A stretch of DNA of 58,557 nt, the filler included, from Basidiobolus ranarum (Eukaryota): the NCBI GenBank assembly GCA_040143965.1. It is 8 parts of 8 records of this genome, joined end to end, with 100 filler letters (N's around TTAATTAATTAA, not from the genome) between each part and the next. Parts side by side here need not be neighbours in the genome. Positions count along the whole stretch, not along the records: positions 51,353 to 58,557 come from JASJQH010008038.1; 7 more parts are not named here. One strand, given 5' to 3'. This document shows positions 9,536 to 58,557 of the stretch, piece by piece. The position numbers were made by a program, and so were the translations under genes. The notes below the pieces were generated by a model. That model had not been told where the DNA came from. It made no database searches and saw nothing but the letters and a program-made list of their open reading frames with translations. How positions within the stretch are numbered: the first letter of the stretch is position 1; every line of letters begins with the position of its first letter.

Positions 9536-9539
9536 AGTG

Positions 9540-10379: not shown

Positions 10380-10729
10380 TGTTGAAATTAGGTAAAAAGC
10401 AACTCTTTGTTTAATAGTTAGTGTATATATTCTGATTATTTAGCACTCAATTCAGTCATTCAAGAACATGTGTTTATTGATCTCATCAATAGATACATCA
10501 AATACATCACTTTTACCAATTCTCAATATATTCTCACAACCTCTCCTAATCACTGCAAATTTTTACATGTGTTTTACTGGCATGTTTGTTATGATCTAAG
10601 CACATCCAATAGTCCTATTTCATGATAAACTAAGCATTGAATATATTATATTCACCAAAACGTAAGTTTTTGATTCACAAATTCAAATATTATACAAAGT
10701 ACTTCCAAATCCCCTAAACACTTTGCTCA
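10380..10729 (+). repeat. Copia LTR family A (TG...CA, 350 bp)
   Basis: Begins tgttgaaattagg and ends ctttgctca; reverse-complement homolog of 13316-13664. Confidence 0.8.
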
Positions 10730-12770
10730 TTCTGATGATTCCATGGCTAATCATAAATATTGGATAAAAACTATGACCAATTGGCTATCATCCATTGGAG
10801 TCCCTCTAAAAGAAGATGACTTAGTAATGACACTACTTGGGAGCCTGCTGGACAAGTTTGAGAACCTCATAATTGCCCTAGAATCAAGATTAAAACCATT
10901 AACAATGGAATATTGCTAGGCCTTTCAATCAGGAATTAAAGAGAACTAATTCCCAACAAAGTAATGCAGATCAGTCTTTTTTTGGAGCTGAGAATTGTCC
11001 AACAGGCTTCAACAATGGTGCACATAGCAGGAAATCAATTATTTGCAAGTATTGCAAGAAATCAGGCCATTCAAACACAGATTGTAGAAAAAGGACTTTT
11101 GCCACAAAGCCAAAATTGAAACAGGCAAATCAAGTAGGCATTGATAGGAATTATCTACTTGTGTCTGGCCTATCAGCAATCACCAAGGAAGACTCAGAAA
11201 TGTGATACATTGCCTCATGAGCTTCCCAACATATTTCAAACAAGAATTATTAGTCTTGCAGCTTAGAACCCATCCAAACAAGGAAATTCTACTTGGGTGA
11301 TGACTAGGCACTAGATGAAGTTGGTAAGGGCACAGTTGTGCTCGACTTAAACCAAAATTCAACTACACCATCATCAAAAATGGATGATGCACTCTAAGTA
11401 CCAAATGTAGAACAGAATCTACTCTCAGGAAGCCAAGCAACAACTCAAGGACAACATTTTGTCACAGATCAAAATTGTATCACAATAGTGAATAGGATCA
11501 AAATTTAGTACTTATCCAAGCTAAAACTCAGCAAATTGCACTCTGAGCATATAAACTTGGCCAAAACTTGTAAAATAAGTGGTCAAACATGGCATAACTA
11601 TTTAAGCCACATTGCAGAACAACAACTAACCCAAATGATCCAAAATCAGCTTGTTATAAGCATAGGAACTGAAAATATCACTAAATTGGACATGTGTGAA
11701 GGTTATGTATATGAAGAACATCACGGACAGCTGCTTTAAAGCTCTGGAGATATCAAGTCCACTCAGAATCTTGCCCTCATTCATTCTGACCCATGTGGTC
11801 CCATAGAAAATGTCCCTCTAGGTGGCAAAAGGTACTTCATGACTTTTGTTGATGATGTAACAAGCTATACTTAGATATTCTTTTTCAAATCAAAGTCTGA
11901 AGCCTTGGCTATGCTCAAGCACTACAAAGCAATTGTAGAGAAAGAATTTACACAAAAAAATGGGATCTTAGGGGCAAAAATGATGGAGTATACTGCTCCA
12001 AAGACTTTGCTAGTATTTGCTCTCAACATGGAATTAGGCAACACACTACTGTACCGGCTATTCCACAGCAAAATGGAGTTGCAGAATGTGCTAGTAGGGA
12101 CATAGTGAAGATGGCAAGATCAATGTTACATGATCAAAAGTGAGATTACCAACTATGGGCTGAATCTGTCTCCACCGCAGTCTACATCAAAAACAGAGGC
12201 TCAACAAGAATGCCACAATATTCCTCTCCATTTGAAGCCATATATGGATTAAAATCAAGTGTGGAACATTTCTGGATCTTTGGTGGCACAGCATATTGCC
12301 TAATTTGAGCCCCAAAACACTCAAAATTGCGACCCAAAAGCAGAAACTGCATATATGTTGGTTACTCTGACGGTTCTAAGGACTAAGAACTGTTTGATAC
12401 TGAACATTATGAGCAAATTATATGCAGAGCTGTGATTTTTAACGAAAAAGCAAATTGTCATCTCAAGTCACAGTTCTTGGTCCAGAAAAAATAATCAGCA
12501 CTGTTCAGGAAATCTTGGACAGAATTCCAGCTCTATCTTGGCACTATATAACCAATATATCAGCCCCAATTTCATCAGAGGATGATACAGGACTTAGTAG
12601 AAAAGTCAGGCAGACAAATAAGCCAAGGAACTAGTGGAGCACTTCCAATGAAGTTGTCAATGATTGTGCAGCATTTTGTTACAGTCCACAGATTGTAGAT
12701 CAAGCTCTGGAGTGTCTTGAAGCAAAATTATGGAAAAAGCAAAGTTGGATGAGTTTACCTCACTTCAGGA
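10730..12770 (+). mobile_element. Degenerate Copia gag-protease-integrase remnant
   Basis: EDDLVMTLLGSL, CKYCKKSGHSNTDC, LIHSDPCGP, YFMTFVDDVT, PQQNGVAE, LWAESVSTAVYIKNR; many stops and frameshifts. Confidence 0.85.
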
Positions 12771-12779
12771 CTGATAAAA

Positions 12780-13664
12780 GTGTTGCCATCTCCACTATGG
12801 TCCTATTAGCATATTCTGCAACTCCATTTTGCTGTGAAGTATAAGGTACAGTAGTTTGTTGCTTAATTCCATGTTTAGAACAAAAACTAGCAAAGTCTTT
12901 AGAGCAGTATTCTGCAACATTATCACTCCTGAGTACCCTTTTTTTGTGCTGATTTTTTCTCTACCATTGCTTGGTAATGCTTGAACATAGCTATGGCTTC
13001 TGATTTTGATTTGAGAAAGAATATCAAGTATATCTTGTTTTGTCATCAATCAAGGTCATAAAGTAAAGTTGTAGACAAAGTGTAGAGAGTGCTTTCCTCT
13101 GCTTCTTGTGAAAGGCAAGGAAAGCTTGTGGTGGTCCCTTTGGCTCTTTTTCTTCCCCTCTAACAAATCCCTAAAGGTCCTTGTGTTCTAGCACCATTTG
13201 CATCTTAAACTTCCAAAGGTGAAAGTTTTCACCATCAAACTTCTCTGAGGATGCAAAAACATTAGTAATAGTACTGGTTGATATTCCTTTAGCAGCTAGC
13301 TTGGTGCTCATAACCTGATAAAATATTCAGGGGACTCCAAGATGTATTGGACAAGATTTGGATTTGTGAGTCAGACACTTTTAATTTATTGATTTGACTT
13401 TGTCCTATTTGGAGTTTACTATGAAATACAACTATTGGACAAGCTTAGATCATAAAAAACATGCATGTTAAGCATGGGTCAAAATTTGAGATGATTTGGA
13501 GAGGTTTTGAGAAAATGGTTAGAATTGGTAAAAGTGATCTAATTGATATTTCTATCAATTGGAACAATACATACACTTTTGGATGGCAGAATTGAGTGCT
13601 AAACAATCAAAATATGAATAAACTAACTATCAAATAATGAATTGCTATTTACCAAATTTCAACA
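12780..13664 (-). mobile_element. Copia 5' end, internally deleted: 5' LTR 13316-13664, PBS 13304-13315, gag start and integrase fragment
   Basis: LTR TGTTGAAA...TATCA followed immediately by GGTTATGAGCAC; EKFDGENFHLWKFKMQMVL; SQQNGVAE. Confidence 0.85.
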
Positions 13665-14019
13665 GGGAGCCTGCCAGATGGTTTTGCGAACCTCATAATT
13701 GCTCATGATTCAAGATCAGAGCCATCAACAATGAATTATGATGGTGTTATGCTTTTGATTGAGGAATTAAGTGTTGCAATTCTTAGGTACCTAAGAATTA
13801 TAGGGGTTTAGTAAGCTAGTATTGTATTCACTAAAACTGGACTGAAGTGTATTGGGGGAGATATTCCTCTGTTTGTACTTGAAGTGATAGATCAAATGAA
13901 TCATAGCTCATCTACTGATTAGCAATCTAATTACTATGATAGGATCTACCTACATCACACTGGGGTAGCTCTATTCTTGGGCAAGACATCTTTATAATTA
14001 GCACATCATAACATTCTCT

Positions 14020-14600
14020 CTCACTGAGAATGAAAAGGCTCTCCTAAGTCTTTCTTTTTTTAGTTCCAATATTTGGTTGGTGGAGCATCTTCTAGGAGTC
14101 TGGCCACTCTTAGTCTATCCTAACATGCTAGGTGTTCCTTACTACACTACATAATTATGTGCAAGCTGATATGTCTAGACTGGGTATTATCTAACAACTT
14201 TGAAAAGTCCTGTCCAAAGAGATTCAAACCTGCTCTTGGACTTATTGCTTAACAGTAGAGGTTCCTTAAGCAATTGATTGTGGGTTTACAGTATTATCAT
14301 AACAAGTCTGATTTTTTGAGGAAAATTGCTTCAACTCTGGCTTTTGCTGCATTTCTCTCTATTGTGAGCTTCTTCATTGCTTTGATTTAGCTAAGTTTAT
14401 CTTCCAAAAGGTTGGTAAGTTTCTGTGACTCCATTGTGTCATTTTCCTTTATAGCAACTTTTGGGTAATAACATACTTCTGAGAGGCATGTTCTGTCTTT
14501 ACAGTAGTCTGGACTCCTTTCAAATTGCATATCCAGACTTAGAGGCAGCAGATATTGTCAAGCAACATTTTTTCATGAACTGGAGAGTACTAAAGAGCAC
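14020..14600 (-). mobile_element. Degenerate Gypsy integrase C-terminal (GPY/F) remnant
   Basis: RFESLWTGLFKVV...TYQLA resembles the GPY/F motif; CpG-depleted. Confidence 0.5.
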
Positions 14601-14700
14601 NNNNNNNNNNNNNNNNNNNNNNNNNNNNNNNNNNNNNNNNNNNNTTAATTAATTAANNNNNNNNNNNNNNNNNNNNNNNNNNNNNNNNNNNNNNNNNNNN

Positions 14701-14802
14701 TTTGAGATTAATGGTAAGCAGGGTGCTAGTGCTGGACTTCGATCATCTGTCAAACTTCTTCAACCTAACGCCCCTCAATTCTGGGACCTTGAATCTGCAT
14801 AA
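14701..14802 (+). CDS. 3' end of a chitinase paralog (contig-truncated), tail-to-tail with 15161-16966
   Basis: FEINGKQGASAGLRSSVKLLQPNAPQFWDLESA*; 14701-14771 is identical to the reverse complement of 15189-15259. Confidence 0.85.
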   Translation, partial: FEINGKQGASAGLRSSVKLLQPNAPQFWDLESA

Positions 14803-15160
14803 TTAATGATTCCCAAAAAATGATACCCAACATCCAGAAATTCAGTTATTTGTTCAAGAAATAAAATCAATTATCTTGTCACTAAATCTGTTAAATTCAA
14901 GCTTAATTTCATTCCCAGAGATTAAATATTCAACTTGGTATGCTTTCATACTCAACATCGTAATATGAATAAATGAGATTCAAGTAAATAGTGGAGTTCA
15001 AGTTATTTTACCTTTACCAAGACATTGACTACATCAATACTCCCCTACCGATCTCTTGAATATCAATAAATACCTGAACGGTATATTGAATAGTTAATTT
15101 ACAATGGGGAACAAAAGTATTGATTTTATTAGAATTCTAAAATTTCCTATCACCAAAAGT

Positions 15161-16966
15161 CTACGAAGAATGAAAATCCCAAAATTGAGCGTTAGGTTGA
15201 AGAAGTTTGACAGATGATCGAAGTCCAGCACTAGCACCCTGCTTACCATTAATCTCAAACAAGATCGCCATATTGTACTTGGGTTCCTTCGAAGCTTCAC
15301 TGAGGACAGTGACCAAATTTCCTTGTTGGGTAAAAGTACCACGAGTGACGGAGGTCACGTTCTGACCAGTTGGGAGTGAGAAATCAACTTTCCACTGGTT
15401 TGAGAAAGCTTTCCCGGTGGTGCGGATACGAACTAGGGTAGTGAATTCAGTAGTAGTGGTTGCATCTCCCCGGACAAAGTCTATTAGAGCATCTTTTGCT
15501 ACTGCACTCGAGTCAGGTACTCTCTTACGAAGAGCACTATTAGAACTACAACTCTGGACATTTTGACCAGCAGCCCAATCGCAATACACTCCAGACGATC
15601 CACTGGCACAGTACAATGACTTATCCGTACTGCATGGGCTCAATACCCATTTGCCATTATCGCATCTAGCAAAGTTGTAGCCATTGCAGCCCATTGCGTT
15701 GCTTGTGCAAGTTCCTCCTTGCACTGGGCAGTTGGGATTAGATGTAGGACTGGGTAATTGTGAGGTTCTGGTGGAAGTAGTGGTAGTGCTACGAGTACTA
15801 GATAGTGAGGAGGTAGTTGCTTTGGTTGTCTGTCTGGTAGATGTCGGCTGAGTGGCTGTACTTGTGATAACACTTGTACTAGGCAGAGAGGAGGTCGTGG
15901 TTTTCGTAATCTGACTTGCAGCGGTTGATTGGGTAGTTGGAGATACTGCAGTACTAGGATTGTTGCCGCATGAAGCTCCTCCAGACTTTAACTCATTCTT
16001 AACCTGTACGGCGAAACTTGACCCACCATCGGTGTTCATGTCGGAAGTTGATGCATCCCAGACCATCACGCCACCAAATGAAGAGTATTTGCTTCTAATA
16101 CTTTGCACCACTTGATTGACTTGTGCTGCTGGAATGTATCCAGTACTTGCTGATTTAGCGGATCCTGGAACACCAAGGAAGATCTTGACATTCTTGTTTG
16201 CCGATTGAGTGACAGCCCAATTGTGCCAGGTGTCAAAGTTGAATTGAGCTGAATTACTTGCAGAACAATAGTTGTTGTAGAATTGCACGAATACCATGTC
16301 AAACCAAGCTGTGTTCAACGTGGTGCCTAGGAAGGCATCTGGGAATGGGCATTGAGGTGCACTGGTGATGTAGTACTTCTTACTGGTATCTTGGGCGAAG
16401 TAACCTCGTAGCCCACTAATCAGTGCTGCATAACCAGCGGTGCCACCACCTTCAATATCTAGATCTATTCCGTCAAGAACTGCTGATCCGAATGGGCGTG
16501 TGGATGATGAGCCACCCAAGAAAAGATCCCAGACAGTCTTGGAGAAAGTAGTAGCATCTGCATCATTGCTAAAGCCATAAGAGCCTGTTGCACCTCCCAA
16601 GGACATGATCACCTTCTTGCCCTTAGATTGGCAGTATTTGATATCATCTCCAATATCGGGGCAACTCAACAGCGAAGTGCCTGGAAACACGGTACTATCG
16701 CAATGGAAGGACAGGTTAATCTCGGGAAGTTTATTTGTCCCTGAGTTGAAGATGTCTAAGAAGGCGACATTCAAGACGTCTACAGTGTCATCCTCACAGT
16801 AACTGCGGATAGACTTCTCCCACTTGGATTCATCAGGTGTACTAACACCGTAAGAGTTTTGGCCCCAATATGCAACAAAGTTATTGTTACAATTATCTTG
16901 GAAAGCAGCTGTAACAGCCAAACTGAAGAGAATACTAGCGAGTACCTTCATTCGAGATGTAGACAT
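15161..16966 (-). CDS. Secreted GH18 chitinase (class III/subgroup B, CTS1-like) with Ser/Thr linker, CBM19-like Cys module and C-terminal domain
   Basis: Signal peptide, VAYWGQN, SLGGA, catalytic DGIDLDIE, SAPQCPFPD, VQFYNN, GGVMVWD; no introns. Confidence 0.95.
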   Translation of the reverse strand: MSTSRMKVLASILFSLAVTAAFQDNCNNNFVAYWGQNSYGVSTPDESKWEKSIRSYCEDDTVDVLNVAFLDIFNSGTNKLPEINLSFHCDSTVFPGTSLLSCPDIGDDIKYCQSKGKKVIMSLGGATGSYGFSNDADATTFSKTVWDLFLGGSSSTRPFGSAVLDGIDLDIEGGGTAGYAALISGLRGYFAQDTSKKYYITSAPQCPFPDAFLGTTLNTAWFDMVFVQFYNNYCSASNSAQFNFDTWHNWAVTQSANKNVKIFLGVPGSAKSASTGYIPAAQVNQVVQSIRSKYSSFGGVMVWDASTSDMNTDGGSSFAVQVKNELKSGGASCGNNPSTAVSPTTQSTAASQITKTTTSSLPSTSVITSTATQPTSTRQTTKATTSSLSSTRSTTTTSTRTSQLPSPTSNPNCPVQGGTCTSNAMGCNGYNFARCDNGKWVLSPCSTDKSLYCASGSSGVYCDWAAGQNVQSCSSNSALRKRVPDSSAVAKDALIDFVRGDATTTTEFTTLVRIRTTGKAFSNQWKVDFSLPTGQNVTSVTRGTFTQQGNLVTVLSEASKEPKYNMAILFEINGKQGASAGLRSSVKLLQPNAQFWDFHSS

Positions 16967-19345
16967 GATGCGTTATTTGCAGAGACTTGGTGTTTGCGAT
17001 TATTTGGTAATCACACTTATATATCAAAATTGGAGACCTTTATGGTTGGTGAACTGGTATTTATGCCGAGTTCTGTACATAGGTTTATTTGGCTTTCTTT
17101 ACTAATCGAAGCACGGGAAAGCTTCTATATGGTTAGATAACTCAAAAGAAATTTATTTTCAATTGCGCCTACTGGCCTGAGTTGAATATTGAACTAATTT
17201 AAGAAAGCTGGTAGCATAATTTAATAGTAACTTTTCCTTTTCTAGTAAAGCTATATTAAGTGTGTTGCATATTGTATTTTGACTGGTGACTCTTTTTAAT
17301 TATATATGTATCTCCTTTAACTCTTTTACATCCAACGGGTGACTCCAATTCTTCTTCAGAGAGCATCATTTAGTGATGATGAAATAGCTTGCCCATATAT
17401 CTCTTTTTTCTTAATCAATTGCTGTCGGTTGACAGGTTAGTGTCATACCGGTAGGTTGAATAAAGTAATAGATCGTGGCTAATATTAAAATAATTCTAGC
17501 CGATGTTGCTATATTTGACAGTGAAAGCGTAGCAATATACATCTATTAATGCTAACGCATATAACAAACAAGTTGAATACCGGAATACTGTTCTATATGA
17601 AGGAAAAAAGTAACTGTCTATCTCCAGGAACTCATGGGAGCTACAGTACTCTCATATTAGTGGCGAAAAGTATCGACTACTTCAAGAAAAAGATTATTTT
17701 TATCCTTTGCATCAATAAAGTTGTCACGTTAATAGATCGTGACAATTCATATCCCGATTGCTAAACCAATGATCGATAGTGATTTTTCAGCCAGTAATCT
17801 TACCTGAAAGGAAATCTGGGCTTCAACTTAGGCAATTCATGCTCCATGAGGCCAATCGGATATGAATTTACAATGTTATCATCTTTTGTTGCTTGTCTGG
17901 GTGCAGTGCTTAAAATATTGAGCGATTTGTTTTTGCATGTGTGCGCATCAAGCATTGATGTGATCTGTTGATTGGCATTTAGAATCGATCTAAGATTAAT
18001 CGAAACCTAAGTGCATACGACTAAAATCAAATATCTCGCATTACTTAAGAATAGTGCAATGGCCGTCGTTGGGATATATATTGGTCCGGGAATACCGGAT
18101 ACTAAGTAATTTTTGAAGGTTTAAAGTAGTAGGCTGGATTGCGCTTTTGGTGTATACATATCGTATTATAAGAGAAGTCTCTAGTAGTATTCTCAAGATA
18201 GTTTGGGTGAGCGTATACTAGAAGCATTGTGAGAATACTTCCGGGGCAATCTACTATCAAAGCTTCTGGAGTATGACAATTTTATTGTTGGTTCTCTCGT
18301 ACATTCTAGCTAGTCTTTATATCGTGTAATCATATGTGTAAGAGAGACCTACATTTGAGAAACTTTGCAGTTTCAAGATTTATATATCAACTATAGATAT
18401 ACCAGTCATGGTGGTGAGCTAATGCTGATATTTAGCACTTGAGCTATCAATTATGACATTCACAGTTGTATGAAGCTTGTTCGCTTACTCAGTGTATATC
18501 AGTTGTATTGCAAACCTTTATATCTCCATGCAAACGTAATACGCAGCCTTCAAAGACTGGATACCACTATTTTTACGCTTGTGTCCTTACTGTTTAAACT
18601 AGAATAATCTCTCTATCGTTGGCTCTCATCTTATAGATAGCAGATCTGCTTCAGGTTGGATAATGCATTTAGTGTTTTATTGTGGCGAAGAATCTTTGTA
18701 TTAAATCTTCTAGTAGAGTGGAGTGGATTTTGGGCATTGGTTCAGGTACGGAACATGTATTCTAAGTAGCGGACATAATGTTGGAAGTATTTGGGCGGAG
18801 TTAGAAATATTTTGGATGATTCACAGAATTGAAATTTTTGTCTTTTCTTAACATTTGATGTTGTAATTTGGACTTCAGTAGTCAGTAAAGAGGTGTCATT
18901 GATGCCAAATAGGGCATACTATCATTCTATTACATACCTAACTATTAAGATATCTGAGAATGTACAACTGCTACTTCACAATATGCTTGTATGATACTTG
19001 GCCAGATTTTCATTGGATGTATTGGAAAGAAAATGTTATGGTTATGTGTAGAGCTTGATCACTGAATGATCAAGCGATCAATCATTTCAATTTTAAAGTT
19101 GATCTATGATTTGTGTTGTGTTTAAAAAATGATGTGACTGAATCTATTCTTTATTTATTCCCCAAATAGTTATATGGTTTACCAGACAATGTTTGTTAGT
19201 TTTGCAAATTGTCTTATCAATATTCTTTGGTTGTGATTGATGGCCACTAACAGTGGCTGAGCCCAAATATATTAAGTAACTTGAAATTTAAACTAATGAC
19301 AACTCTGTTAAAATTAGCATTGTCTAAACACATATATAGTCCTAT

Positions 19346-21898: not shown

Positions 21899-22036
21899 CT
21901 GCAAAAGTTGCTATATGGACTCAAGCAAGCTCTTAGNNNNNNNNNNNNNNNNNNNNNNNNNNNNNNNNNNNNNNNNNNNNTTAATTAATTAANNNNNNNN
22001 NNNNNNNNNNNNNNNNNNNNNNNNNNNNNNNNNNNN

Positions 22037-25000
22037 ACCGTTTGCAACTAATCCTTCCGTGTGCCCCTCAATGATTTCATCCATTTCGTGTTGACCTTGT
22101 GGACGCATTGTCACCTTTATGCTTTCTTCATGATGGTACAGGACAGGTAATCCACATTCTATCATCCTGAAGTGAAGAAAACTCATCAGTCCTTGCTGTT
22201 TCCCATATTTTGTACTCTGACCATACCTTGTACCTTTCAATGGTTCCATCAACTTGGTTTTTTACTTTATAGACTCATTTGCCACCTATTGGCTTTCTTC
22301 CTGTTGGTAGAAGATTGTAAGCCCATGATTTATTGTCCCAGAGTGAAAAAAACTCATCAGCCTTTGCTATTTCCCATATTTTACATTCTGGACACTCCAG
22401 AGCTTGATCTAGAATCGGAGGATTGTCATAAAATGCCATATGATTATAGACATCATCATTGGATGTTCACCAGTTGCCTGGCTTGTTTTTCCTTCTGGAT
22501 ACTCTTCTATGTACTGAATCATCATCCTCTGATGTTATTGGGGTGTGAACTTTGGGGAAATTGTGCTGGATGCACCTGGAATTTTGTCCGACACTTCTTG
22601 AATAGTGTTGATTGTGCTTTCTTGATCAAGAACTGTGATTGGAGGTTGAAAAATTACTATTTCATCAAAAAACACATGTCTACACCAAAATAACTTCTAA
22701 TTTTTGGTATTTCTTACTTTCAGGCCGTAGATTCATCACCTTAACTAAGAAGTATGCATTTACTACATTTGGGTTCTAATGTAGGGAATTTTTGAGCTTG
22801 AATTAGGCAATACACTATGCAACCAAAGTTCCTTATCTGATACACAGTTGGTTTTGATCCTTGTAGGGCTTCCAGTTGAATGGATTCTTGTAGCAATCTT
22901 GTTGGGCATCCGTTTTCAATATATTACAGTAGAGACCGATTCAGCCCAACATTGCTAATTTAATTTTGCATTATGTAGCATTGATCTTGTCATCTCCATT
23001 ATGGTCCTATTACCTTTTTCCACAACTCCATTTTGCTGTGGGGTGTATGGTACAAAAGTTTGTTGCTTAATTCCATGTTTAGAATACAAACTTGAGAAGT
23101 CTTTTGAGCAATATTCTCCTCCATTATCACTACCTGGTACCTCTATTTCTTGTGCTGATTCTTTCTCTACCATTATTTTTTAGTTGTTGAATGTAGTTAA
23201 GGCTGCAAGTTTTCAATTGAGAAAGAACAACCAAAGGTAGCATGTTTTGTTGTCAACACAGGGCTTAAAGTACCTTTTGTCCCCAGGTGAGATGTTTTTT
23301 GTGTGCCTGCAGAGGTCAGGTGGTGTTCAGGTCAAATTTTTGAGTGGATTTGATCTCTCCAGAGCTTGAAAATGGCTGTCTGTTAAATTTTCCATATATG
23401 CAACCTTCACAATGATCTAATTTGATGATATATTCAATAACTAGACCTGAAATAAGCTCAATTATGATCATTTTGGGAAGTATTTATTCATGACATGACC
23501 TAATCCTCCATGCCATGTTTAACAGCTTATCTCACTGGCTTTGACCATGTTTGCATGCTTAGAATTCAATCTGTTGATTTCTGGCTTGTATAATTTTGGT
23601 TTTTTGATACCAGTTGCAAACTTGGTCTCATTCTGATCTGTAATAATGCATTAAGCTTTGCTGAACATGAAATCTAGTCCTTGAGTCATTGTTTGGCTTA
23701 CTGAGTAGATACTTGGCTATGTTTGGCACTTAGAGTAAATCATCAAATTTTGCAGATGGTGCAGCTCAATTTTTGTTCTAAATTGAGCACAACTGTTCCC
23801 TTACCATTGGCATCTAGAGATTGGTCATTTGCATGTAGACTTTCCATGTTTGGATGGGCTTTAAGCAGGATAACTAGCATTTCTTGTTTGACATATTCTG
23901 GGAAGCTCCTTCGTATATATATCATGTTTCCAAGTCTTCTGTAGTGGTTACTGATAGAGCAGACACATATAGAAGATCCTTATCAGTGTTTACTTGATTT
24001 GTTGATCCAATTTTAGCTTGGTGGCAAAATCCTTTTTCTGCAATCTTATCTTAATGACCTGGTTTCTTACAATAGTAGCAGATGGTAATCTCCTATTGAG
24101 GTCAACATTATAGAGGCCAGATGGATGTTTTACACCTCCAAAAAGTTCCTGATCTTCAATATTTTGCCAGGAATGAGATCTCTTTGATTCCTGATTTAAA
24201 AGACTAGCACCTACATATTACATTGTCAAAGGCTCTGCTCTAGATTCTACAGCAATTAAGAGGCTCTCACACATGTCTACCAGGCTCCCAGGTAGTGTCA
24301 CAACTAAGTCATCTTTATTTAGAGGTGCTTCATTGGATGATAGCTGATCTGCCATAGTTTTAATACAATATATATGTTAGGCATAGTATCATCATAATCT
24401 GTCTGAATCGAGAGTATTCTTGCAAAAAAAATGGCCTATTGGCTAGACTTTTAGTCAGATATAAGCTTTCAAATGTTTTCCAAGCATTTTTGAAGTTTTC
24501 TAAGTGTATGTGTTTCAATTCAGAGTCTCTGAGGAGCAGACAAAGTGCAGAGAGTGCTTTCCTCTGCTTCTTATCAAAGGCAATGATAGCTTCTGGTGAT
24601 TCCTTTGGCTCTATTTTGTCCCCAGTAACAAATCACTAAATGTTTGTCTTTATCTTCTAGCACCATTTGCATCTTGAATTTCCATAGGTGAAAGTCTTCT
24701 CAATCTAACCCATTGGTGGAAGCAAAAATGTTAGTAAAAATGCTGGTAGACATTCTTTTAAGAGCTTGCTTGGGGCTCATTATCTGAAAGAAGTGTTCAG
24801 GGAATTTGGAAGTATTTTGGATAAGAATGGGATTTGCAAATCAGACACTTGAGTTTTATTGAATTGAATATGTCCAAGTTATAGTTTACTATGAAGTTGG
24901 ACCCATGGACATGCTTTAATTGAAACAAACATGCCTGTAAAGTATGGGTGAAAATATGAGATGATTTGTAAATGATTGATAAATGGTCAAAATCTGTAAA

Positions 25001-25130
25001 GTTATATAATTGATTTTTATATTGGTGAGAGCTAAATTCAAAGATTTTTGAAAGCCAGAATTGAGTACTAAGTTGTCAGAATATGGATAAACCAACTACT
25101 AACTTAAGAGCTACTATATATTTACTTTTA
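22037..25130 (-). mobile_element. Degenerate Copia element: LTR family A (~24785-25130), gag, protease, integrase and start of RT
   Basis: FHLWKFKMQMVL, CYYCKKPGH, SDNGGEYCS, PYTPQQNGVVE, GLVANG at the RT start; PBS remnant ATGAGCCC near 24773-24780. Confidence 0.88.
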
Positions 25131-25559
25131 AAAGTGGAATAAGATATATATAAATCATAATTGAATAGTTATCAAAAGGAACCCAGATAAGTGAATATGC
25201 TTTAATGTTACTGTAATTTGTTCATTGGTGGCACTTTTGTCATCAGTAAACTTGAAGGTTTTTCTGGCAACAATGCACTACCATCGTGCTGCAAATTTTG
25301 TTAGATCAATATAGTTTGCTCCACTAAGCATATGTATCACTACTATCCCAAAACAACATTAACTGTATGATTTTGCCATTAAGAGTTTTGTCAAATTTCT
25401 ACATGCTCACTAACTTCAACTCACCAAATAGGCAATCTAACAATACACTTTGGATTAGCTATGAGCCTAAGAGCATCTGGCTAAAGGGGATTAGCTAAAG
25501 CCATAGCTTCCCATTAGCTACTATGTACTTACTATTTGGTAATATTTGAATACTACTAC

Positions 25560-26100
25560 CTCAGCTGTATGGTAGAAATTTGAACTGAATGAGCCTTACA
25601 AGATAGGCTCAAAGTTGAAATTGATGGGAAAATGCTTGAAATCATCAAGCCACCATTACATCTTGCCTTGACTTCAATTGAAATCCTCTCACCTGGGCTT
25701 TCACTTAAGGAAACAACTGGAAGTATTGGATTTGTATGTATTGATGCAGAATCTCTATTAGATTTCTGCTCAATAGATACTGGCAATATTTGGAATTGTT
25801 TGTAAATATTGTTGATATATTTTATACCATCAACTCAAATTGGCAGATCTGAGGCAATACAGGAAGTGTGCAAATATTTGTAATTAAATATGAAAAATAT
25901 TTCAGAGGCTGAAGGAAGAGAGTTTAAACCTATACCTCTGTTCAATAAGCTCCCAGATGCATCTTTGACAGTGCTTAGATGTTATAGGCCCTTGTTGTAA
26001 ACTCTGCGAGTTCCCCATGGTGTGTACCTGTTGTGAGATGCTGCTTGTTGAGAAATAAGCAGTATTACTCCATACTACTCTGGTAGACACTGTCTCAATA
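25560..26100 (+). mobile_element. Possible highly degraded CACTA/EnSpm-like DNA transposase remnant
   Basis: IGPCCKLCEFPMVCTC resembles the GP..W.FPMER.CG motif; CpG-depleted context. Confidence 0.3.
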
Positions 26101-27099
26101 TAATCAGTGATGGATGTAATATAATATGTTAAGGAGATTCTACAAATTATTAACCTTTGAGCACAGGCCTCATTTCAATTTGCTTGCTTGTTTTTGGATT
26201 ATTTAAAAATGATATTAGCAGCAAGACCCAATCCATAGCCACAGAGTAAGTACCTCTATAATTTACATCACTTGGGCCTTGTGATAAACCAATGGCACTT
26301 CTAGGAAAGCTGCAAGACTTGTAAGAGAAATCAAGACATGTGGTATCACTGTCTTGGCTGCAGGGTAATCCAAGCAAGTAATGACAATGCATTTGTGGCA
26401 GGTCATTTTTTGATTGCAATTCAGGGGTATTTTGGCTAAATTCTCAATGGAAATTTGCCTAAATCCCAAAACTGAATGGCATTTTGAATGGTAAGAAGAA
26501 TCAGCTACTAATAAGTGTCAGTGCTACAATAAATCTGAGATATTCAACAATTTTTTTACTGGTAGTTTGATGGCTAGGCATAGTGATATTATTGAGATGT
26601 GTATTATACATCAAATATGTGCAGAAACAAGGACTAAACAGATCCATATTGCTTTATCTTTGGTTCTCATTATGGCTGCAAAAACAAAACCTAAAATATC
26701 TAAAAAATGCATGCATTTCAATTGAAGTTCCTATGGCAGCAAAGCCAGAAATTTGCTAGTAGAGAAATGTAGTAAATTGAACAATCCATTGCCAAAATTG
26801 AGGATCAAATTTGCATATTTGCAATTTCCCTATTATTATAGCTTCATTAGTATTTACCTCTGTTAGATATATATATATTATTATAGCTTTCTCAAATTAT
26901 TTGGTGACTTGTTGGATTCACAATAATCAAAGCTTGATTCTAATGGAGTATTTCACAACTTTCCGGATTACATTTCAACTTTACAGAACATTCCATTGAC
27001 AAGTAATCACATGATCTATGATGCTCTAATAACCATGCATCCATGTTAATAGAATATTCTAGAATAATGTAGAAATTTCATTGTTATGCCATTATACCT

Positions 27100-29271: not shown

Positions 29272-29480
29272 NNNNNNNNNNNNNNNNNNNNNNNNNNNNN
29301 NNNNNNNNNNNNNNNTTAATTAATTAANNNNNNNNNNNNNNNNNNNNNNNNNNNNNNNNNNNNNNNNNNNNCCATCCCTGATAGAGCATGTACGTGAAGC
29401 GGATATACTGATTGAATGGGATTTTAATGAAGAACCGATTGAGATATATATACATTCGTGAAATGAAGAGGTAGTGCGGA

Positions 29481-36520: not shown

Positions 36521-36703
36521 TTAAAACGTCGGAGATATCATTCATTGGGATCTATCTTTTCCCTAGCTATTTGTACCCCACATAACAATCATTGAAAAAT
36601 TATNNNNNNNNNNNNNNNNNNNNNNNNNNNNNNNNNNNNNNNNNNNNTTAATTAATTAANNNNNNNNNNNNNNNNNNNNNNNNNNNNNNNNNNNNNNNNN
36701 NNN

Positions 36704-43645: not shown

Positions 43646-44028
43646 ATCATTCATACAATACACCTGTATATGCGCATGTATCCACACACGTAGTAAATGT
43701 TTTATTCTTGGCCTTTTTGGATGTACACTAGAGAACCATATTCTTCACTCTCTTTATAAATTGTCGGCTCTTAGTGAAAGAATCAAAAATCAGTATCTCT
43801 TTCTGATACGTCGTTTCCAACTGGTATCCACACAGTTGATAAATCCAAATATAATACTGGCTTAGCTTGAATTGGAGATATGCTACCTTTTTGTATGACC
43901 CTATTCTCGAAAATGTAACATCAACTAGNNNNNNNNNNNNNNNNNNNNNNNNNNNNNNNNNNNNNNNNNNNNTTAATTAATTAANNNNNNNNNNNNNNNN
44001 NNNNNNNNNNNNNNNNNNNNNNNNNNNN

Positions 44029-49930: not shown

Positions 49931-51352
49931 GCTTAGATAGACATAGAATTCTCGTAACTAGCTCTTACTTGCAACCTTTAGAGAAACTACATACCTTAAC
50001 CAATAAACCCTTTGTAATATGTATTTGGGGCGCGTTTTAGCCTAGACTACGGAATAGTAAATAATATTCATCAAAATATAGCCTTACCGAGCATTAAGAC
50101 CAATATAGATTCAAGATCTTGATGGCACTTTGATAGCTCGAGTTCATAATACATATATAGTAATTAGAGTAACTACTACTGTAGCAACAGAATCTGATTC
50201 GAGCTTTATGTGCAATCTCAGCGCCTGTAACTTGATTCAATAGAAGGTAAATATTTACGCGTTGCCTAGGCTGAATAATTTTATACCATTAAGTGGGTTT
50301 TTGGGTTAGGGTTGATTCTTGAAAAGTTCAAATGTTTGCGTACCAAAGAGCTTCCATATTTGGTTCTAGAATTGGATTACCAAGATTCATAGATAAGATT
50401 TGTTTCTTCCTATTTCTTCCTGTTTCTTCCATTTTAAGTACGTGTGACGTTTCTGTCCTTACACATGTATCACTTACCACTATTTTGAATCTCCTACAAT
50501 GGTGTTTTACTTTAAGATGGATGCTTTAATGATGTACTTCAATTATATTAACTAATGTGAATATGTGATATTGGTAAGTATTGCTCATTCTATCTGTAGT
50601 TCCTCTCAATAGCACATTCTCAAGTATTAAATAAGTAATACTATTACTTGGTTTTTCTGCAGTCTCTTTATAAAAATCCCGATCCGCATTTTATTTTTTG
50701 CCAATAATAGAACTCATTGAGGCTCAAGCTGTGTGTTATGTGCAATAATATTGACTTTATTAAACCAATAATTCTAAATCTACACTTCTATCCTCTAGCA
50801 CTTCTATCCGATGCTTGTATGTAATTGCTAACTTGGTTCAGGATCATCATCAAATATTGTAACAAGTGAATATGACTTAAACGGCTTAATTATTATAGCA
50901 TCTTTTGCAAAACAAATCAATTCAGGAATTGCCCATGGTACTCCCACAGCTATTCTGAGCACATTATTGAGAACATATTCATGCAGTATCAATGAAATAT
51001 GGATTACTTTCAAGATAGCGCTGTTGAAATTAGCATGGCCTAAACACCTATATAGTCATATATAGCATAGTATTGAGTTATTCCATATTGAACCAAGATA
51101 TCATCTCAAGAGGAATTTACTTAGAAGTTTGAAGATAAAATTGTTAAAGTATTTGGGAGCCTGTTGGAAGTGGTTTGGAGAATTAGAGGAATTGTTGGTT
51201 TTCACTTATTGATTTATTGAGTAGAAAGTTGACATTTATAGTTTTGTCAAGANNNNNNNNNNNNNNNNNNNNNNNNNNNNNNNNNNNNNNNNNNNNTTAA
51301 TTAATTAANNNNNNNNNNNNNNNNNNNNNNNNNNNNNNNNNNNNNNNNNNNN

Positions 51353-51777
51353 TGTTGTTGAACGAGTTCCACACTTCAAGTTTTTGCCCCGAATGTGTAT
51401 TTTCAGAATTGGAAAAATTCAAAACTATTCCAAACCCGAGAGTTTTTAGAAGAAACAAGATGCCAACTGTAAAATGCCATGGTCTTTTAAGGTACTGTTC
51501 AAGATGATACAAAAAGAGAGAAAAGAAAATGAAAGCTAACATTCTTTCGTCAAATAGGTGCATAAACCAAAATTGTTTGAAGACCACGCCAGCCAGTAGC
51601 ATTAGACGACTTTGGAACCGAGACCTTGTAGTACTTAATTTCCGGCATATCTTAGCTTCGCTTAGAGAAAAAGGTACCCGTCCTGACCGATTTATGCCCC
51701 AAATACCAGTTAAAAGAAAAAGCAAGCAAAAGGAAAGCCAAGAATCAAACAATCTTCCTCCTCAGTTATCGCTGTAG
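51353..51777 (+). CDS. Fanzor (eukaryotic TnpB/Cas12-family RNA-guided nuclease), C-terminal RuvC-II / Zn finger / RuvC-III part; 5'-truncated; intron 51492-51557
   Basis: Spliced: LLNEFHTSSFCPECVFSELEKFKTIPNPRVFRRNKMPTVKCHGLLR|CINQNCLKTTPASSIRRLWNRDLVVLNFRHILASLREKGTRPDRF...; intron GTACTG...GCTAAC...AATAG. Confidence 0.85.
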
Positions 51778-51784
51778 GACACAC

Positions 51785-51990
51785 ATAGTATAAACCTATA
51801 GGTTATACATTGTTTAGTTAACCATGAGCAATATGACTTGGACCAATCGACCCGCACCTCTACTCCTAAGACTGATATTCGTGGATAGAGCTCGGTGAAG
51901 ATACACGTGAACATATTTGCTTTATACAGCTCATTTCAGAGAAAACATTTACCAAACTCGGCCAAGTTATTGCTAGCATGAAACCGGTTC
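51785..51990 (+). ncRNA. Candidate Fanzor omegaRNA scaffold
   Basis: Lies immediately 3' of the Fanzor stop. Hairpin at 51788-51808, long-range stem 51823-51844/51960-51980 and nested stem 51855-51862/51886-51897. Confidence 0.45.
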
Positions 51991-54262
51991 CTTATAGCAT
52001 GTAGGCTCTATGATTGCATTGTTCTAAATGGTAGGTATCACATGACGTAGGCACTAGCTGCATGGTCCCTCATAAAGCAAGAAGGAATGAATGTACTTCG
52101 AATCACGGTACATCTAACTCTAGAATTGGTCTGAACCATGGGTTTAAACCTCATTTGGCAAAATACTTACACTGGCTCGTCCAGTAAAAAAAGCTCGTTC
52201 GATCAGGTCCGATCTCATCTTTGATCATCACAAACTTAAGAATCCCTACTATTAATCAATCGATTGTACATATTTGGCATTGGTACCAAACTGATCATCA
52301 CTGGCGATTATCATAAAAAGAGTTTTCACAATAACGCTTGGGAGTAAAGGTATTGTTATCCAACAACAGAGGTGTTGAAACGCTAGTTTCAGGGATAAAA
52401 GTGACATTCGTTCAACGCTGCTGAAAAAGAATCTCTTGTAAATATCGATTGTTTGTGCAATCTAAAACATGGTTACTACGTATATTCCACTAAGATGACA
52501 AATACAATGACCACACTTGAAGTTACAAGATTGGGGTAAATTACGATGATGGCATTGATTATGTACCTAATACTTCAAAGGCAATATTCGTCAACATTAT
52601 CAAATATGACTCCTCTTGATAAGGTTCTCAAATCCATACAGCACCCGGCGCCAACACAAGATGTGGAATATGATTGTTCGATAGTAGAGCAGCTTTAAAG
52701 TAGTGTGGAAGCTCCAACCCATCATCGGATATAGCTCGTGAGGGGATTGCCAAGCTACTATTGTAAACAGCATGCAAGCTTTACTATCTTCCGACTAGAC
52801 CTCCTGAAGTAAATTAATGTTTGTTGGGTTAGGGTAGGGTGATAGGGAACTTTGTCATCCTATTGGGGGCACAGAAATAAATACGGGACACATGCAGCTA
52901 CAAATAGGTAGACATCGCATATACATTGCTCTTATCATTTGTTTCATGTTGGGATTTTTCCTAAACATGGAAGGTCATAGGCACTGGCATACTCAGGAAT
53001 CAGCGTGAGGATTGTTGTTACATGAGACTATGAACCGTACTTGATATTACATGTTAGGAAAATCAGCCTGTCCTCGTTCAGACTCCCATCATCGATGAGG
53101 GTTCGTACTCTTTGATCTATCCTGCCTAGATAAACCTTAATTTCCTGGCCATCATCGGAGCCCCTATTTCATTAGGCCATGGAATCAGTTGCACTTTGCG
53201 TTTCATATACAAAACCAGATATTCTGCAGTTGATCAATTTAAGGTTAACTTTGTTACAGTGCTTACGACACAGCGTGGTAAAATGTGGCCAACCGGGAAC
53301 TCATTGATTGTTGCTTGAGGAATGCTGGCAACAGATCGAGTGGGTGTGATGAGCAATTCCTTATTTGCCATCATACCAATTACTTCGGGCCGAGCGAGAG
53401 AAGCTGCTGATCTATTTATCCGTCGGTGGAACATCAGCGCCCTCTAGACCCTTTGGCAAGCTATAGTTGGAGATGTGAAGGCCATAATCGGAAATGAGTA
53501 GAGGTGTCCAATATGCTCTTCTCAGAGCTCCTCTCTCTTGCAATCTTAGATGAGGCTTGTACATTCAACAGTCGATCACCCCTCGTCCATTAGATATCCC
53601 TGATGCTGATAGCTCTCGTGAATAGAATCTTGTTCTAGATAGAGCATACGAATAGCCTCGATCCAACTCATTATGTTGGCTAGTAGGCAGGATCAACTGA
53701 TCTTGGAACATAAGTACATCTTAGCTTAGATCACTCTTGAACTCTTTAAGATTAAATGTTTGCTGCGATTGATCAAAAATAGGAAACAAGGGGCAGCATT
53801 CAATTTTTGTTAAGATCACGTAATGAATTCGACACAATCTATTCTAAAAAGAGAAAGCATTCATATTTCCTTGAAAAACCCCCCGACCAATCGATATCGT
53901 GGAGGGTCGGGGATTCTGTAGTTTCATCCTGAGCGTATATAAAGAGACGATCGACTAATTCTCGTTTTCATCTTGTTATTGACAACTATTGTTATTTCTT
54001 GCTCCCAGCTACCTCTACGTTTCCAATCACTTTTCTTGTATATTAAAAAGAAGCGTCTTGTGTCATTCGTCTTGTAAAATTCCTTCATTTCCCTGTAGTA
54101 CTCAGTTACATATATTATTCTTGAATTTCTGTGGACTCAGTTATTCTCTTCAAAACTTGAGTGTGGAAGGCCCTGTGTTCAGTTCACCTGATATTCACTC
54201 TTCCTTTGCAAAAACCTTAGCATTTTTATCGGGGATTTCCCAATCTTTCTTAAATCTCTATC

Positions 54263-55171
54263 ATGGAAACATATTACGGCTACATAGATTCGGTGCCGGA
54301 TGCCTTGCTCGTGTTAGAAGCATGCAGACTTGGTAACCTTCATCGAGTTCAACGGCGGCTTAGCGAAAAAGAAAGGCAGCGTATCAGGTCAGGCTCAATA
54401 TTCGTATGGGAGGAGGAGGAGTCTGGAATGCGCAGATGGACGGATGGTCGTACCTGGTCTCCATCAAGAGTACATGGTAGTTTTTTGACATACCGGGAGC
54501 TTGAGGGGAAGCGGAAATCTGGCAAAGTAAACGATACACCATCTCCCACGTTGCCAAGTCATGATTCGGACTACGACAGTAAGGCACATAACAACGGAGA
54601 AGATTTCAACTATAAAGATGATGGAATGATCAAGCAATCACTATCGGTAACCACATGCAATGGTCGCAAACTTCATTTGATTAGCTACTTTAACAAGGTG
54701 CACGTATCTATGGGAAATCTGAAACTTCCCTCCTTAGATCCATTCTTCAGTCATGTGGTGATCCCAAAAGGATTATATCCAGACATATCAAACGAACCCA
54801 ATCCAACTCCAACGCCATCACACCATCATCACGCATCAACTCGCCCCTCCCCAAGTCCCTTATATTATCCCCATGGTAGCTTCATAGATGAGCTCAAGTC
54901 GGATCTTTATTCCACAGCACCATATCGAAAAATACGTGATCATGTTCGATTACCAAGCCCTGTTAGCTCAGAAACCTCGATAAATGGACCGGAGATATTA
55001 AAGTCGGTGATAATGAGTGACTCACAACATATTCCTAGCGACAACAACAGTACATGGAAGTACAATCTACCACCACCGACCATTCCTTACCAGGATATTA
55101 GATTGGATACACTACCTAATACTGAAGATCGGCGACAGCTGGCAGTCTTGAGTACCGTATTGTCATTGTAA
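54263..55171 (+). CDS. Gti1/Pac2 (WOPR) family transcription factor
   Basis: METYYGYIDSVPDALLVLEACRLG, RRLSEKER, IRSGSIFVWEEEESGMRRWTDGRTWSPSRVHGSFLTYREL, GMIKQSLSV, LHLISY; TATA-like element near 53936. Confidence 0.95.
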   Translation: METYYGYIDSVPDALLVLEACRLGNLHRVQRRLSEKERQRIRSGSIFVWEEEESGMRRWTDGRTWSPSRVHGSFLTYRELEGKRKSGKVNDTPSPTLPSHDSDYDSKAHNNGEDFNYKDDGMIKQSLSVTTCNGRKLHLISYFNKVHVSMGNLKLPSLDPFFSHVVIPKGLYPDISNEPNPTPTPSHHHHASTRPSPSPLYYPHGSFIDELKSDLYSTAPYRKIRDHVRLPSPVSSETSINGPEILKSVIMSDSQHIPSDNNSTWKYNLPPPTIPYQDIRLDTLPNTEDRRQLAVLSTVLSL

Positions 55172-57137
55172 ACGATTACTCATCTTTCCAAGAAACCCCC
55201 TAGATCCCGAGTCTCATTCTCCAGGCACACATTTCCCTCCACCAGACCAGGGCATTGTTTAAAATCGGACATTCTTCAGCTTTACGTGGTGTATACATGA
55301 AATCTTTTTATCTAGCAATCCTTTCGATGTACTACCCCGACTCTTTTCACTCACACAAAATTTCAACTACCCTTACAGCTCTCCCTCTTCATAACCAAAA
55401 AAACGAAACCAAAAACCCCAATTCTATGTGCAAAATAATAAACCTAGACCACTTGTATGATATGATAAGCCTTACTTTGATCACCTTTGATGAGAACAAG
55501 AGAGAAGCCTCATTAACTCTATCTATTAACATTTCTAATTTGAAAGTAGGTAATAAACCTAATTGTTCAAAGCCCATAAGAAGTATATTAACGATTTGGC
55601 CCTAACTGAATATATCCATATGTTCCCAAACTTGGAGTAAGCTAATGAGCTCCTTAATCTGATATTTTCAACTCATGCCGGTGATACTAGCAGGAAAATG
55701 GGTTACAGTAGAGACTGCTGCTTCTTCACCGTGGGTCATTCCCCAAAATCATGGAATAGATCCAATACGAGCTATACGAAATGTAGTACATGGAGAAGTT
55801 TGTAGACAATATCAGCCAGTAATCGCACTTTCCGGCATGCGCTATATACAATGGTCAAATTGATGTTACAAAGCTGTCTTTAACAAGCGAACTAAAAATT
55901 TTGAAAATACTCTCAAGTGCCACAAATATCTAGATATCATCACAGCTCCAATGATAACCTTTCATATCCCAACCTTGATATAACGATGTTTGCATACGAA
56001 ATGATTGACGATTGATAGCAACCTATCATCAGTCTATATATGAATCCACAACTTGCGCGAATATTTATCTCTTTCGCATTGGTAATTTAATCACATGGGT
56101 AGAGTCAAATACCAGGAATGCATGTAATCATCCAATCCAACCACAGGATCTAACGAATTCAATCAACGATTAGAAAGCGGTGTAGTAAGTTACGTTTAGG
56201 ATTTCTTAATTGAGAAAGATCTAATCCTATTTGATCGCCACGAGCATCCTCTTTATGTAGGGGAAAGGGGGAGCTTGTGAATTACTAATCAGGGAAATTC
56301 TACGAGTTAATATGGCATAGGATTGTGAATACTGCTCCAATTAATACCTCTGTGCTCATCAGAGAAGAAATGAGTCCTACACCTCCCACATCACAGAGTC
56401 AACATGGATTAAGAAATCCCATGCATTTTTTTGTTCCAGCATGCTCGTGATTATGATTATATACAGCTCATGAGATACTCATATTCATGTATGTGAGCAA
56501 GACACTACACCAGGAGTGTTTCATTGAAAATATGCTAGAGAGCTCAGTGCTGAAGCACTTCAATAGAACTTATTTGGGCATCATGGCTATGGAAGGTTTG
56601 AAGTTGGACCGGAATCCATTACATCTGATTTTATATGATAGTGGAGTTGAAGTTGAATCCAGCCCAAAGATAGCCCACATCTATATGTACAGTTGACATG
56701 GGCTGAATATTGTTGATATCTGAGCTATACAGTTTGTTTTGCATGATGTTCTAGACCCATGATGTCACTCCATACGGTTCGATCCCCACTGCCCATCAAT
56801 TGTGTAGTGGGGTCTCACCTTAGAAAGTACCTATTAGCAGATATGTATCTATGGTAACATGCTTAGTAGCCGCCAAGAGTGACGAGGAATCAAACAGATA
56901 TGTATTCGACAAGGATGAAGATTTATGGTTCAAGTTAAGTGAATGAATTGCTACAGATTCAGTTGATTTACAGGTAGTGATTAGTAACAGCTATACATGT
57001 TAGGGTTTATAAATACTTTACAAGTATATCGGGTTTCTATTTGAATATTTGGAGTGTCTTGTAGTTGAATTAAAGGTTATCTCAAAACCACTCTGCTCAT
57101 TTAGATATCAGTGTTTGTTTTGTGTGAATTCGGATAT

Positions 57138-58557
57138 TTAACTTGCCAAGCCAAGCAAATTCTTTTGCTCGCCACTGAGATCTGCCTCGGCAGTAGCACC
57201 ATTACGTCGGACTTTTGGGATATTATCAGTGAAGATATGGATCAGTGCCATACAATATGTCATGCCAGGTAGATAGTTAGCCATGATTGGTCTGACGTGC
57301 CCTATGAATGTTGATCCGAATGTCTCTTGACTTTTCTCACATGGCGTTACAGTTCTATCGGGAAGAATATGATATAATGACCCACGCCACTCCACTTTAG
57401 ACCCAGAGATGGCGTATGCCCATAGTGGGAAAGCGGCGATCTCACGAAGACCCCATGCTAAGAGAAAGTTTTGAAGATTCTTGACTGGGCTTTTCGTTAC
57501 TGTCTGAAAATTATTCAGATCATTCAGAAACCAAACTACCATGTGAAAAGTAAAGAAGCTCAACGGGTGAATCTTCCACAAAAGATTGAATCCATAAGAT
57601 CCTAAGAGACCGCAAATAACTGACTCGGTAAAAGGTTCGACTAAGGTAGCAGTAGTGACCATATATTTACGAAGTCTAATCCATCTAGCACGACGTTGAA
57701 AATAGTCGATGGTTTTCATGGAACCCAAGGATTGATAAGCCAAGTCTTGGGTCATTTCGTGTTTATAACCCATATCCCAGATAGCTTGAGCGATTTCGTT
57801 ATCTTCAGCAAGGTAGTTCTTAAATGCTGACAAGCCACCGGCACGTTCTAGAACGCTTCTACGAAACATGTTGGATTTCCCAACTACGCAACTATCGACG
57901 GAGGCAAAGTTAATCGCGTTATACATCTTGGCGTGGGCCGTGTTTAAGAATACCATCTCTAACTCTGAGCCGAATGAGTTAGGTCTAACTCCAAGTGGTG
58001 CATGGTGAACCAGGCCTACTTTATCCTTAGTCAATTTATCTACTGAACGACCAAGACTCCCAGGATAGGTGAATACATTCGAATCAAGAATCCAAACGAT
58101 GTCATATTTCGCAGTTTCATAAGATTGAATCAAATTATTGATCTTAGGGTTCACTCCAATCAGATTCTCCCCTGAAAAATACGTGTAAGAACAGGGTCAG
58201 AGTGAAGTACATGTTAGGTAAGCTCTTACCAATGATCAATCTAGTATCAACATTAGGATGCTCAGCAATAAGCTCTTGAACAATTCTGATGGCAGGATCG
58301 TCACCATTAGCAACACTGAATATTACTTCAAAGCGTGGATAGTCTTGATTCAAACTTGAGGCCAAATTTCTTCTCATGTCATAATCGATTCCTTTGATCG
58401 GTCGTAAAATTGATACTCCTTGGGCCTCGCTGGGAGGGAGAGTTGCTGATGCAAAACTCTATCGAATCTGAAAATGTGATCAGAAGCCAAAGTAGAAAGC
58501 TCAATTTATTTGGAAGAATATCAAATCGCCTCACCAATGATTCATCAGAAAATGATA
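57138..58557 (-). CDS. Glucosylceramide synthase (GT21), 5'-truncated; introns 58172-58229 and ~58459-58534
   Basis: GVSILRPIKGID, YPRFEVIFSV, IGVNPKINNL, WILDSN, CVVGKSNMFR, YLAEDN, RRARWIRLRKYM. Confidence 0.93.

Follow-up and report, generated by a model that had tools for sequence, protein, structure and literature searches.

Fanzor1 proteins are eukaryotic descendants of bacterial TnpB; they are single-RuvC endonucleases carried on DNA transposons, and the mechanism common to TnpB, Cas12f and Fanzor is that of an RNA-guided RuvC nuclease. Fanzor1 binds an ωRNA that is transcribed from the 3′ end of its element, and it cuts DNA that pairs with the ωRNA guide, beside a short TAM motif. This activity was shown in 2023, three structures have been solved and the family is abundant in early-diverging fungi. 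Fanzor1 has been known in such fungi since Bao & Jurka 2013, whose Table 1 includes Rhizopus, Mucor, Phycomyces and Spizellomyces and who described a C-terminal motif, [TS]-[TS]-x-x-[C4 zinc finger]-x(5,50)-RD (PMC3627910). The TnpB proteins of bacterial IS200/IS605 and IS607 elements and Cas12f follow the same superfamily logic, with [TS][TS]-x-x, a C4 zinc ribbon and, after x(5,50), RD (PMC3627910).

The described proteins that come closest to the locus reported here are PpFz1 of Parasitella parasitica (PDB 9cf0-9cf3; Xu et al. 2024, PMC11423790) and, more distantly, SpuFz1 of Spizellomyces punctatus (PDB 8gkh; Saito et al. 2023, PMC10432273). Saito et al. report that Mg2+ is bound in SpuFz1 by E541, D606, D383 and N385, and in SpuFz1 loci they describe 30-nt inverted repeats (IRs) and, immediately downstream of the stop codon, an ωRNA scaffold of 75 nt (PMC10432273). 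A figure legend in Xu et al. includes D606A/N mutants (PMC11423790). According to two other papers, a relocated ‘alternative’ RuvC-II Glu sets Fanzors and a TnpB subclade apart from canonical TnpB (PMC10530073, PMC10711439). No paper that brings Basidiobolus and Fanzor together was found in the literature searched, with the supplementary host tables of the 2023 surveys lying outside that search. Here we describe a short coding fragment from Basidiobolus ranarum that is very probably the 3′ end of a Fanzor1 gene.

A spliced reading frame at a contig edge

The window analysed here, that is, the whole stretch of DNA from position 1 to 58557, consists of eight unrelated small contigs of 7205-7252 bp, arranged in descending order of size with seven identical linkers between them. 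Each linker has the design N44-TTAATTAATTAA-N44. Adjacent pieces are therefore uninformative on each other’s genomic context. The fragment stands at the very start of the last contig, 51353-58557. The linkers and the neighbouring genes are as follows.

7253-7352, 14601-14700, 21937-22036, 29272-29371, 36604-36703, 43929-44028 and 51253-51352: linkers, N44-TTAATTAATTAA-N44
51253..51352, no strand: artificial joint, N44 + TTAATTAATTAA + N44, at which the Fanzor gene is interrupted
54254-55171, + strand: Gti1/Pac2 (WOPR-type) regulator gene, E 9.5e-46, on the same contig as the fragment
57138-58458, - strand: GT21 ceramide glucosyltransferase gene, E 2.9e-44, at the opposite end of that contig

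The GT21 open reading frame matches a ceramide glucosyltransferase of B. ranarum at 100% identity, and the gene holds a GT-AG intron of 58 nt (58172-58229) that is similar in style to the 66-nt intron of the fragment.

Two observations concern other parts of the window. The CpG observed/expected (o/e) ratio falls to 0.03-0.09 at 9001-15000 and 24001-27000, an extreme depletion compared with 0.6-0.87 in gene-bearing contigs; these CpG-poor stretches are consistent with the LTR relics that had been reported in an earlier note on this DNA, and with methylation-driven repeat decay. At 15161-16972 on the - strand lies an open frame of 603 aa that combines a GH18 chitinase domain (E 1.8e-22) with a CBM_2 cellulose-binding-type module (E 1.2e-6), the latter being a module that is commoner in bacteria.

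The coding part of the fragment, 51353-51777 on the + strand, comprises 118 codons and a stop codon in two exons separated by one intron.

51353..51491, + strand: penultimate exon, truncated at its 5′ end; frame from 51355; LLNEFHTSSFCPEC...NPRVFRR...KCHGLL, then the first two bases of a split Arg codon
51492..51557, + strand: intron, 66 nt, GT-AG, GTACTG...GCTAAC...AATAG, after the second base of the Arg codon
51558..51777, + strand: terminal exon, (R)CINQNC...RRLWNRDLVVLNFRHIL...RPDRF..., with the stop codon TAG at 51775-77

The earlier note had proposed a contig start with the N terminus beyond it, a 66-nt GT-AG intron, and coordinates for a Glu codon (51364), an Asp codon (51622) and the ATG of an exon 2 open reading frame (51529). 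All of these proved correct, and the ATG at 51529 was found to lie within the intron. The edge at 51353 is a real contig edge that follows a linker, and it cuts the gene three codons upstream of Glu 51364. The branch site of the intron is CTAAC at 51536, and its branch A precedes the 3′ splice site by 18 nt. Translation of the terminal exon gives (R)CINQNC...RRLWNRDLVVLNFRHILASLREKGTRPDRF, after which comes a tail rich in Lys, Ser and Gln.

The intron is in frame and contains a single TGA (51505-07), so that our searches used a read-through peptide, P0003, in which this TGA is given as X. Exon 1 aligned with chain residues 1162-1206 of PpFz1 (932-978 of SpuFz1) and exon 2 with chain residues 1206-1253 of PpFz1. 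Residue 1206 is thus both the end of the first match and the start of the second, the 22 intron-encoded residues are skipped exactly and the two PDB matches become contiguous once the intron is removed. Because the two exon matches abut at one PpFz1 residue, they provide independent support for the splice. The open reading of 118 codons exceeds chance: comparable openness was seen at 0 of 4238 positions in the 2.4-kb 3′ flank (both strands), and shuffled coding sequence stayed open in 5 of 5000 cases.

Protein models of relatives suggest that CHGLL|RC is a conserved intron site in the fungal clade. Compared with its relative P0005, the ORF call P0045 has 18 extra residues exactly at the CHGLL/RC junction, which suggests that one ORF call has translated an in-frame intron; in P0041 the same junction carries 7 extra residues. 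The first residue of P0043 is the exon 2 Cys, and P0044 contains SSNR, the residues that the final 12 nt of the 51492-51557 intron would encode. The sole public trace of the gene at 51353-51777 is P0056, a 64-aa model that is 100% identical to query residues 77-140 (51583-51774).

Similarity to solved Fanzor1 proteins

To place the fragment, we compared it with sequences of known structure. With phmmer, P0003 matched PpFz1 (9cf0) at E 1.3e-17 and SpuFz1 (8gkh) at E 1.1e-8. A profile (A1) made from eleven short family members, exon 2 included, matched all three solved Fanzor1 proteins, namely PpFz1 (2.9e-63), SpuFz1 (1.2e-28) and GtFz1 (2.5e-4), and TnpB-type chains stayed sub-significant against it (8hr5, E 0.047; 9nzp, E 0.37). 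The last ~95 residues can be compared with PpFz1, the best match. Common to the two are L(L/I)(N/D)EFxTSSFCPxC, NPR, CHGLLRC..NC, LWNRD, LNFR.IL, LRE and RP..F. They differ in that the fragment is one residue short after WNRD(L/Q) and in their tails, and the region that would correspond to the FRI insertion, REC and WED of PpFz1 is off-contig. SpuFz1 shares with the fragment the equivalents of E541 and D606, the CCCC zinc finger and the RPxxF end, and it has Val at the position of the extra Cys in KCHGLL. The motif of Bao & Jurka is present as T-S-S-F-CPEC...C-INQN-C, followed by 14 residues and RD, and the setting is eukaryotic, with a spliceosomal intron and the Gti1/Pac2 and GT21 host genes on the contig.

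The earlier note had pointed to profile searches as a check on this identification. Pfam gave no family match for exon 1, exon 2 or the read-through peptide (P0001, P0002 and P0003), and NCBIfam gave none for the read-through peptide; the single entry returned from either was Zn_ribbon_HMPTM at a chance-level E of 0.062. The matches came instead from the solved Fanzor1 sequences and from homologues. PF07282, the TnpB-type zinc-ribbon model, did not detect 51353-51777. Its scores for the relatives P0006 (E 0.0012) and P0008 (E 0.0038) were also below the cut-off, and it is precomputed on P0049. As full-length fungal Fanzor1 relatives likewise fall below the cut-off, the miss reflects a weakness of the model and not a failure of a defining feature. 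Another model, PF26935.1, is precomputed on many full-length relatives and was not reported by a Pfam scan of five relatives; it may be a recent Fanzor/TnpB-related model.

The silence of Pfam and NCBIfam, together with the weak contact of profile A1 with the TnpB-type chains 8hr5 and 9nzp, is what might be expected if the fragment were not Fanzor1 at all but a contaminating piece of bacterial TnpB or Fanzor2, or an unrelated zinc-ribbon protein matched by chance. However, the three Fanzor1 proteins head the PDB matches and are alone in reaching significance, the zinc ribbon is interrupted by a spliceosomal intron, fungal host genes lie on the same contig and the named homologues are all fungal. 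Compared with bacterial TnpB, moreover, the similarity is sub-significant (E about 0.05-0.4), the Glu is relocated and the gene carries an intron in a fungal genome. We therefore rejected bacterial contamination and chance resemblance, to which we assign a negligible probability.

We conclude that 51353-51777 very probably represents the final ~119 codons of a B. ranarum Fanzor1 gene, in two exons with one 66-nt intron, which agrees with the fungal Fanzor1 C terminus that the earlier note had claimed. Judged by alignment, membership of Fanzor1 appears to hold within the third of the protein that is visible; the N-terminal two thirds, with WED, REC and the RuvC-I Asp, lie beyond the contig edge at 51353.

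Catalytic and zinc-binding residues

The residues by which the fragment can be compared with the solved proteins are listed below.

51364..51366, + strand: Glu codon, predicted alternative RuvC-II Glu; pairs with 8gkh_P residue 935, SpuFz1 E541
51385..51396, + strand: CPEC, which supplies Cys 1 and 2 of the CCCC zinc ribbon (TNB/NUC domain); 39/39 and 38/39 homologues have C in these columns
51559..51576, + strand: C-INQN-C, which supplies Cys 3 and 4 of the zinc ribbon; C in 39/39 homologues in both columns; aligns with SpuFz1 C-TNPN-C
51622..51624, + strand: Asp codon, RuvC-III catalytic Asp (WNRD); pairs with 8gkh_P residue 1000, SpuFz1 D606
51625..51636, + strand: L-V-V-L, from the catalytic Asp to the conserved NFR; one residue short, an in-frame one-codon deletion
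51679..51693, + strand: RPDRF, conserved end of the RuvC domain; F column in 35/39 homologues; aligns with PpFz1 RPPLF and SpuFz1 RPEVF
51712..51732, + strand: KRKSKQK, a basic patch that falls in the non-conserved tail; P0043, a paralogue, reads ERKGKQK there

One tag offset, 394, converts residues 935 and 1000 of 8gkh_P to E541 and D606. The four-Cys zinc finger, the RuvC-III Asp and the RPxxF tail that had been claimed for the fragment were all recovered in these alignments. The claimed RuvC-II Glu does align with SpuFz1 E541, with one nuance: standing just before the TS-x-x-C motif, Glu 51364 is best read as the relocated ‘alternative’ RuvC-II Glu and not as the canonical TnpB Glu. KCHGLL contributes a further conserved Cys, which is present in 38 of 39 close relatives. 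Taking the strongly conserved columns together (≥85% among the 39 homologues), the fragment keeps 31 of 31. Outside the conserved region, the KRKSKQK patch might conceivably have an NLS-like role.

Relatives in Basidiobolus and other fungi

A search for longer proteins yielded 39 homologues out of 131 candidates; they are 251-940 aa long and match at their C-termini, and all of the named ones belong to Mucorales or Kickxellomycotina. An exhaustive search of cluster representatives found 203 proteins at E≤1e-3, with 54 at E≤1e-10. The closest relatives were two fragments from B. ranarum itself, P0043 (79 aa) and P0044 (191 aa), with identities over exon 2 of 82% and 78%, respectively. Both are annotated as hypothetical proteins and are encoded on other contigs, of 9976 and 9463 bp. 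No full-length Basidiobolus Fanzor was found among the named search matches or the ten representatives looked up.

P0044 has a Tyr instead of the third zinc-binding Cys, and its public model runs from ...KFGEDAV straight to SSNR-YTNQNC, which skips the Glu/CPxC stretch. P0044 is thus either a decayed copy or a mis-spliced model, and these features fit a family in decay. The presence of two diverged protein fragments in B. ranarum indicates that the Fanzor1 family is multi-copy there, and the fragment at 51353-51777 would be one of at least three diverged copies.

A one-residue deletion beside the catalytic Asp

Where relatives have WNRD-x4-LNF, the copy at 51353-51777 reads WNRDL-VVLNF, with one residue missing directly after the catalytic Asp. 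HMMER placed a gap at this site against both PpFz1 and SpuFz1. The deletion is shared by 0 of the 39 aligned homologues, and the two B. ranarum paralogues, unlike the fragment, have the normal DLAAVLNF. We then measured the spacing between D and N in 194 fetched relatives, 118 of which have the N[RK]D...N-hydrophobic motif, the motif region being absent in the other 76. The spacing was five residues in 117 of the 118 (P0154 included) and four only in P0056, which is the fragment’s own model. The one-residue-short spacing that the earlier note had remarked on is therefore real, and in this sample it is unique to the fragment.

The catalytic centre retains the Glu and the RuvC-III Asp, with RuvC-I off-contig, and the step from Asp to N-F-R is one residue short, unlike in 117 relatives. 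Such a deletion would put the metal-binding Asp out of register with the invariant LNFR downstream, and, as far as sequence comparison can tell, this shift is more likely to be harmful than neutral. Since the deletion falls right after the catalytic Asp in a segment of invariant length, we lean towards the view that the copy is impaired or decaying rather than a working nuclease. The loss of a zinc ligand in P0044 and the 78-82% identity of the paralogues to the 51353-51777 copy also point towards impairment. Against it stand the 118 open codons, free of stops and frameshifts, the retention of every conserved residue and a CpG content that is not depleted (12 observed versus 15.6 expected, giving an o/e of 0.77, where some other contigs of the window have 0.03-0.09). 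The earlier note had observed the same CpG retention and lack of stops, which we confirmed, and had read them as signs of a young or maintained copy. That reading is unsupported, given the cut at the contig edge, the unique deletion by the catalytic Asp and the fact that the closest paralogues are fragments that are 78-82% identical.

It is possible, although on the unlikely side, that a whole and active Fanzor1 is present at the locus, that the contig was broken by the assembler within a repeated element and that the deletion after the Asp is tolerated. Assembly breaks are frequent within multi-copy transposons, and the family is multi-copy in B. ranarum; the open frame, the 31 intact conserved columns, the undepleted CpG and the intact intron signals would all be expected of such a gene. 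This explanation has difficulty with a deletion that occurs in 0 of 117 relatives, with the lack of a full-length Basidiobolus Fanzor among the named matches and the ten representatives looked up, and with two known paralogues that are both fragments, one of which has lost a zinc ligand.

We also considered whether the fragment could be a 5′-truncated remnant that the host has recruited and kept as a short, separately expressed C-terminal protein, consisting of the zinc ribbon and the last RuvC helix. Although the frame is open and the public gene model (P0056, 64 aa) covers exon 2 only, this idea comes without a start codon or promoter evidence; ATG 51529 lies in the intron, and we know of no function for half a RuvC fold. 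Recent descent from a whole gene is a simpler account of the conserved catalytic residues, and we regard recruitment as very improbable. An impaired or decaying copy of a Fanzor1 gene is the reading that we prefer, with the reservations given above.

Search for element ends, ωRNA and further copies

In a tblastn search of the 39 homologues against the whole 58,557-nt window, the 51353-51777 fragment alone was matched, so the missing 5′ part of the gene is absent from the other seven contigs. A blastn search of 51353-54253 against the window returned the self-match only, with no DNA like the 3′ flank in the other contigs. The left end of the element is off-contig. A repeat search of contig 51353-58557 gave short chance-like pairs only and no informative inverted repeat, and no target-site duplication (TSD), TIR or second DNA copy was visible in the window. 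Two metagenome scans, with exon 2 and alignment A1 as their respective queries, confirmed no related locus. Rfam assigned no family to 51353-54300 and returned one chance-level sRNA match (E 0.31). No equivalent of the IRs or of the ωRNA scaffold of SpuFz1 was found at the 51353-51777 locus.

If the arrangement resembled that of SpuFz1, a scaffold would be expected directly after the stop codon.

51778..51850, + strand: where the SpuFz1 arrangement would put an ωRNA scaffold; two small hairpins are predicted, 51788-51808 and 51809-51832

In a fold scan of 1 kb (71 windows of 90 nt), the sole locally structured stretch was 51730-51834, which adjoins the stop codon and has z values of -2.3 to -2.75. 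The 111-nt fold of 51740-51850 gave a z of -1.3, and 20 of 200 shuffles folded as well. By analogy, 51778-51850 is a candidate place to look for the ωRNA scaffold, one that is statistically unsupported.

Implications for Fanzor1 in Basidiobolus

The fragment is a real but ordinary member of Fanzor1, with one unusual feature, the deletion beside the catalytic Asp. It adds Basidiobolus to the fungi that carry the family, and it illustrates that a spliced Fanzor1 tail can be recovered by careful reading where the public annotation has a 64-residue hypothetical protein. The gain is small, because Fanzor1 is abundant in early-diverging fungi, three structures have already been solved and the copy is partial.

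A bolder proposal, which we hold to be doubtful, is that B. ranarum has a live Fanzor1 lineage, that the full-length gene is broken only by the assembly and that the short turn after the Asp is compatible with RNA-guided cleavage or even tunes it. If this were true, the fragment would represent a natural active-site variant, unlike every other Fanzor1 examined here. A full-length copy with the deletion, if it proved to be active, would tell how far the RuvC-III helix can be altered.
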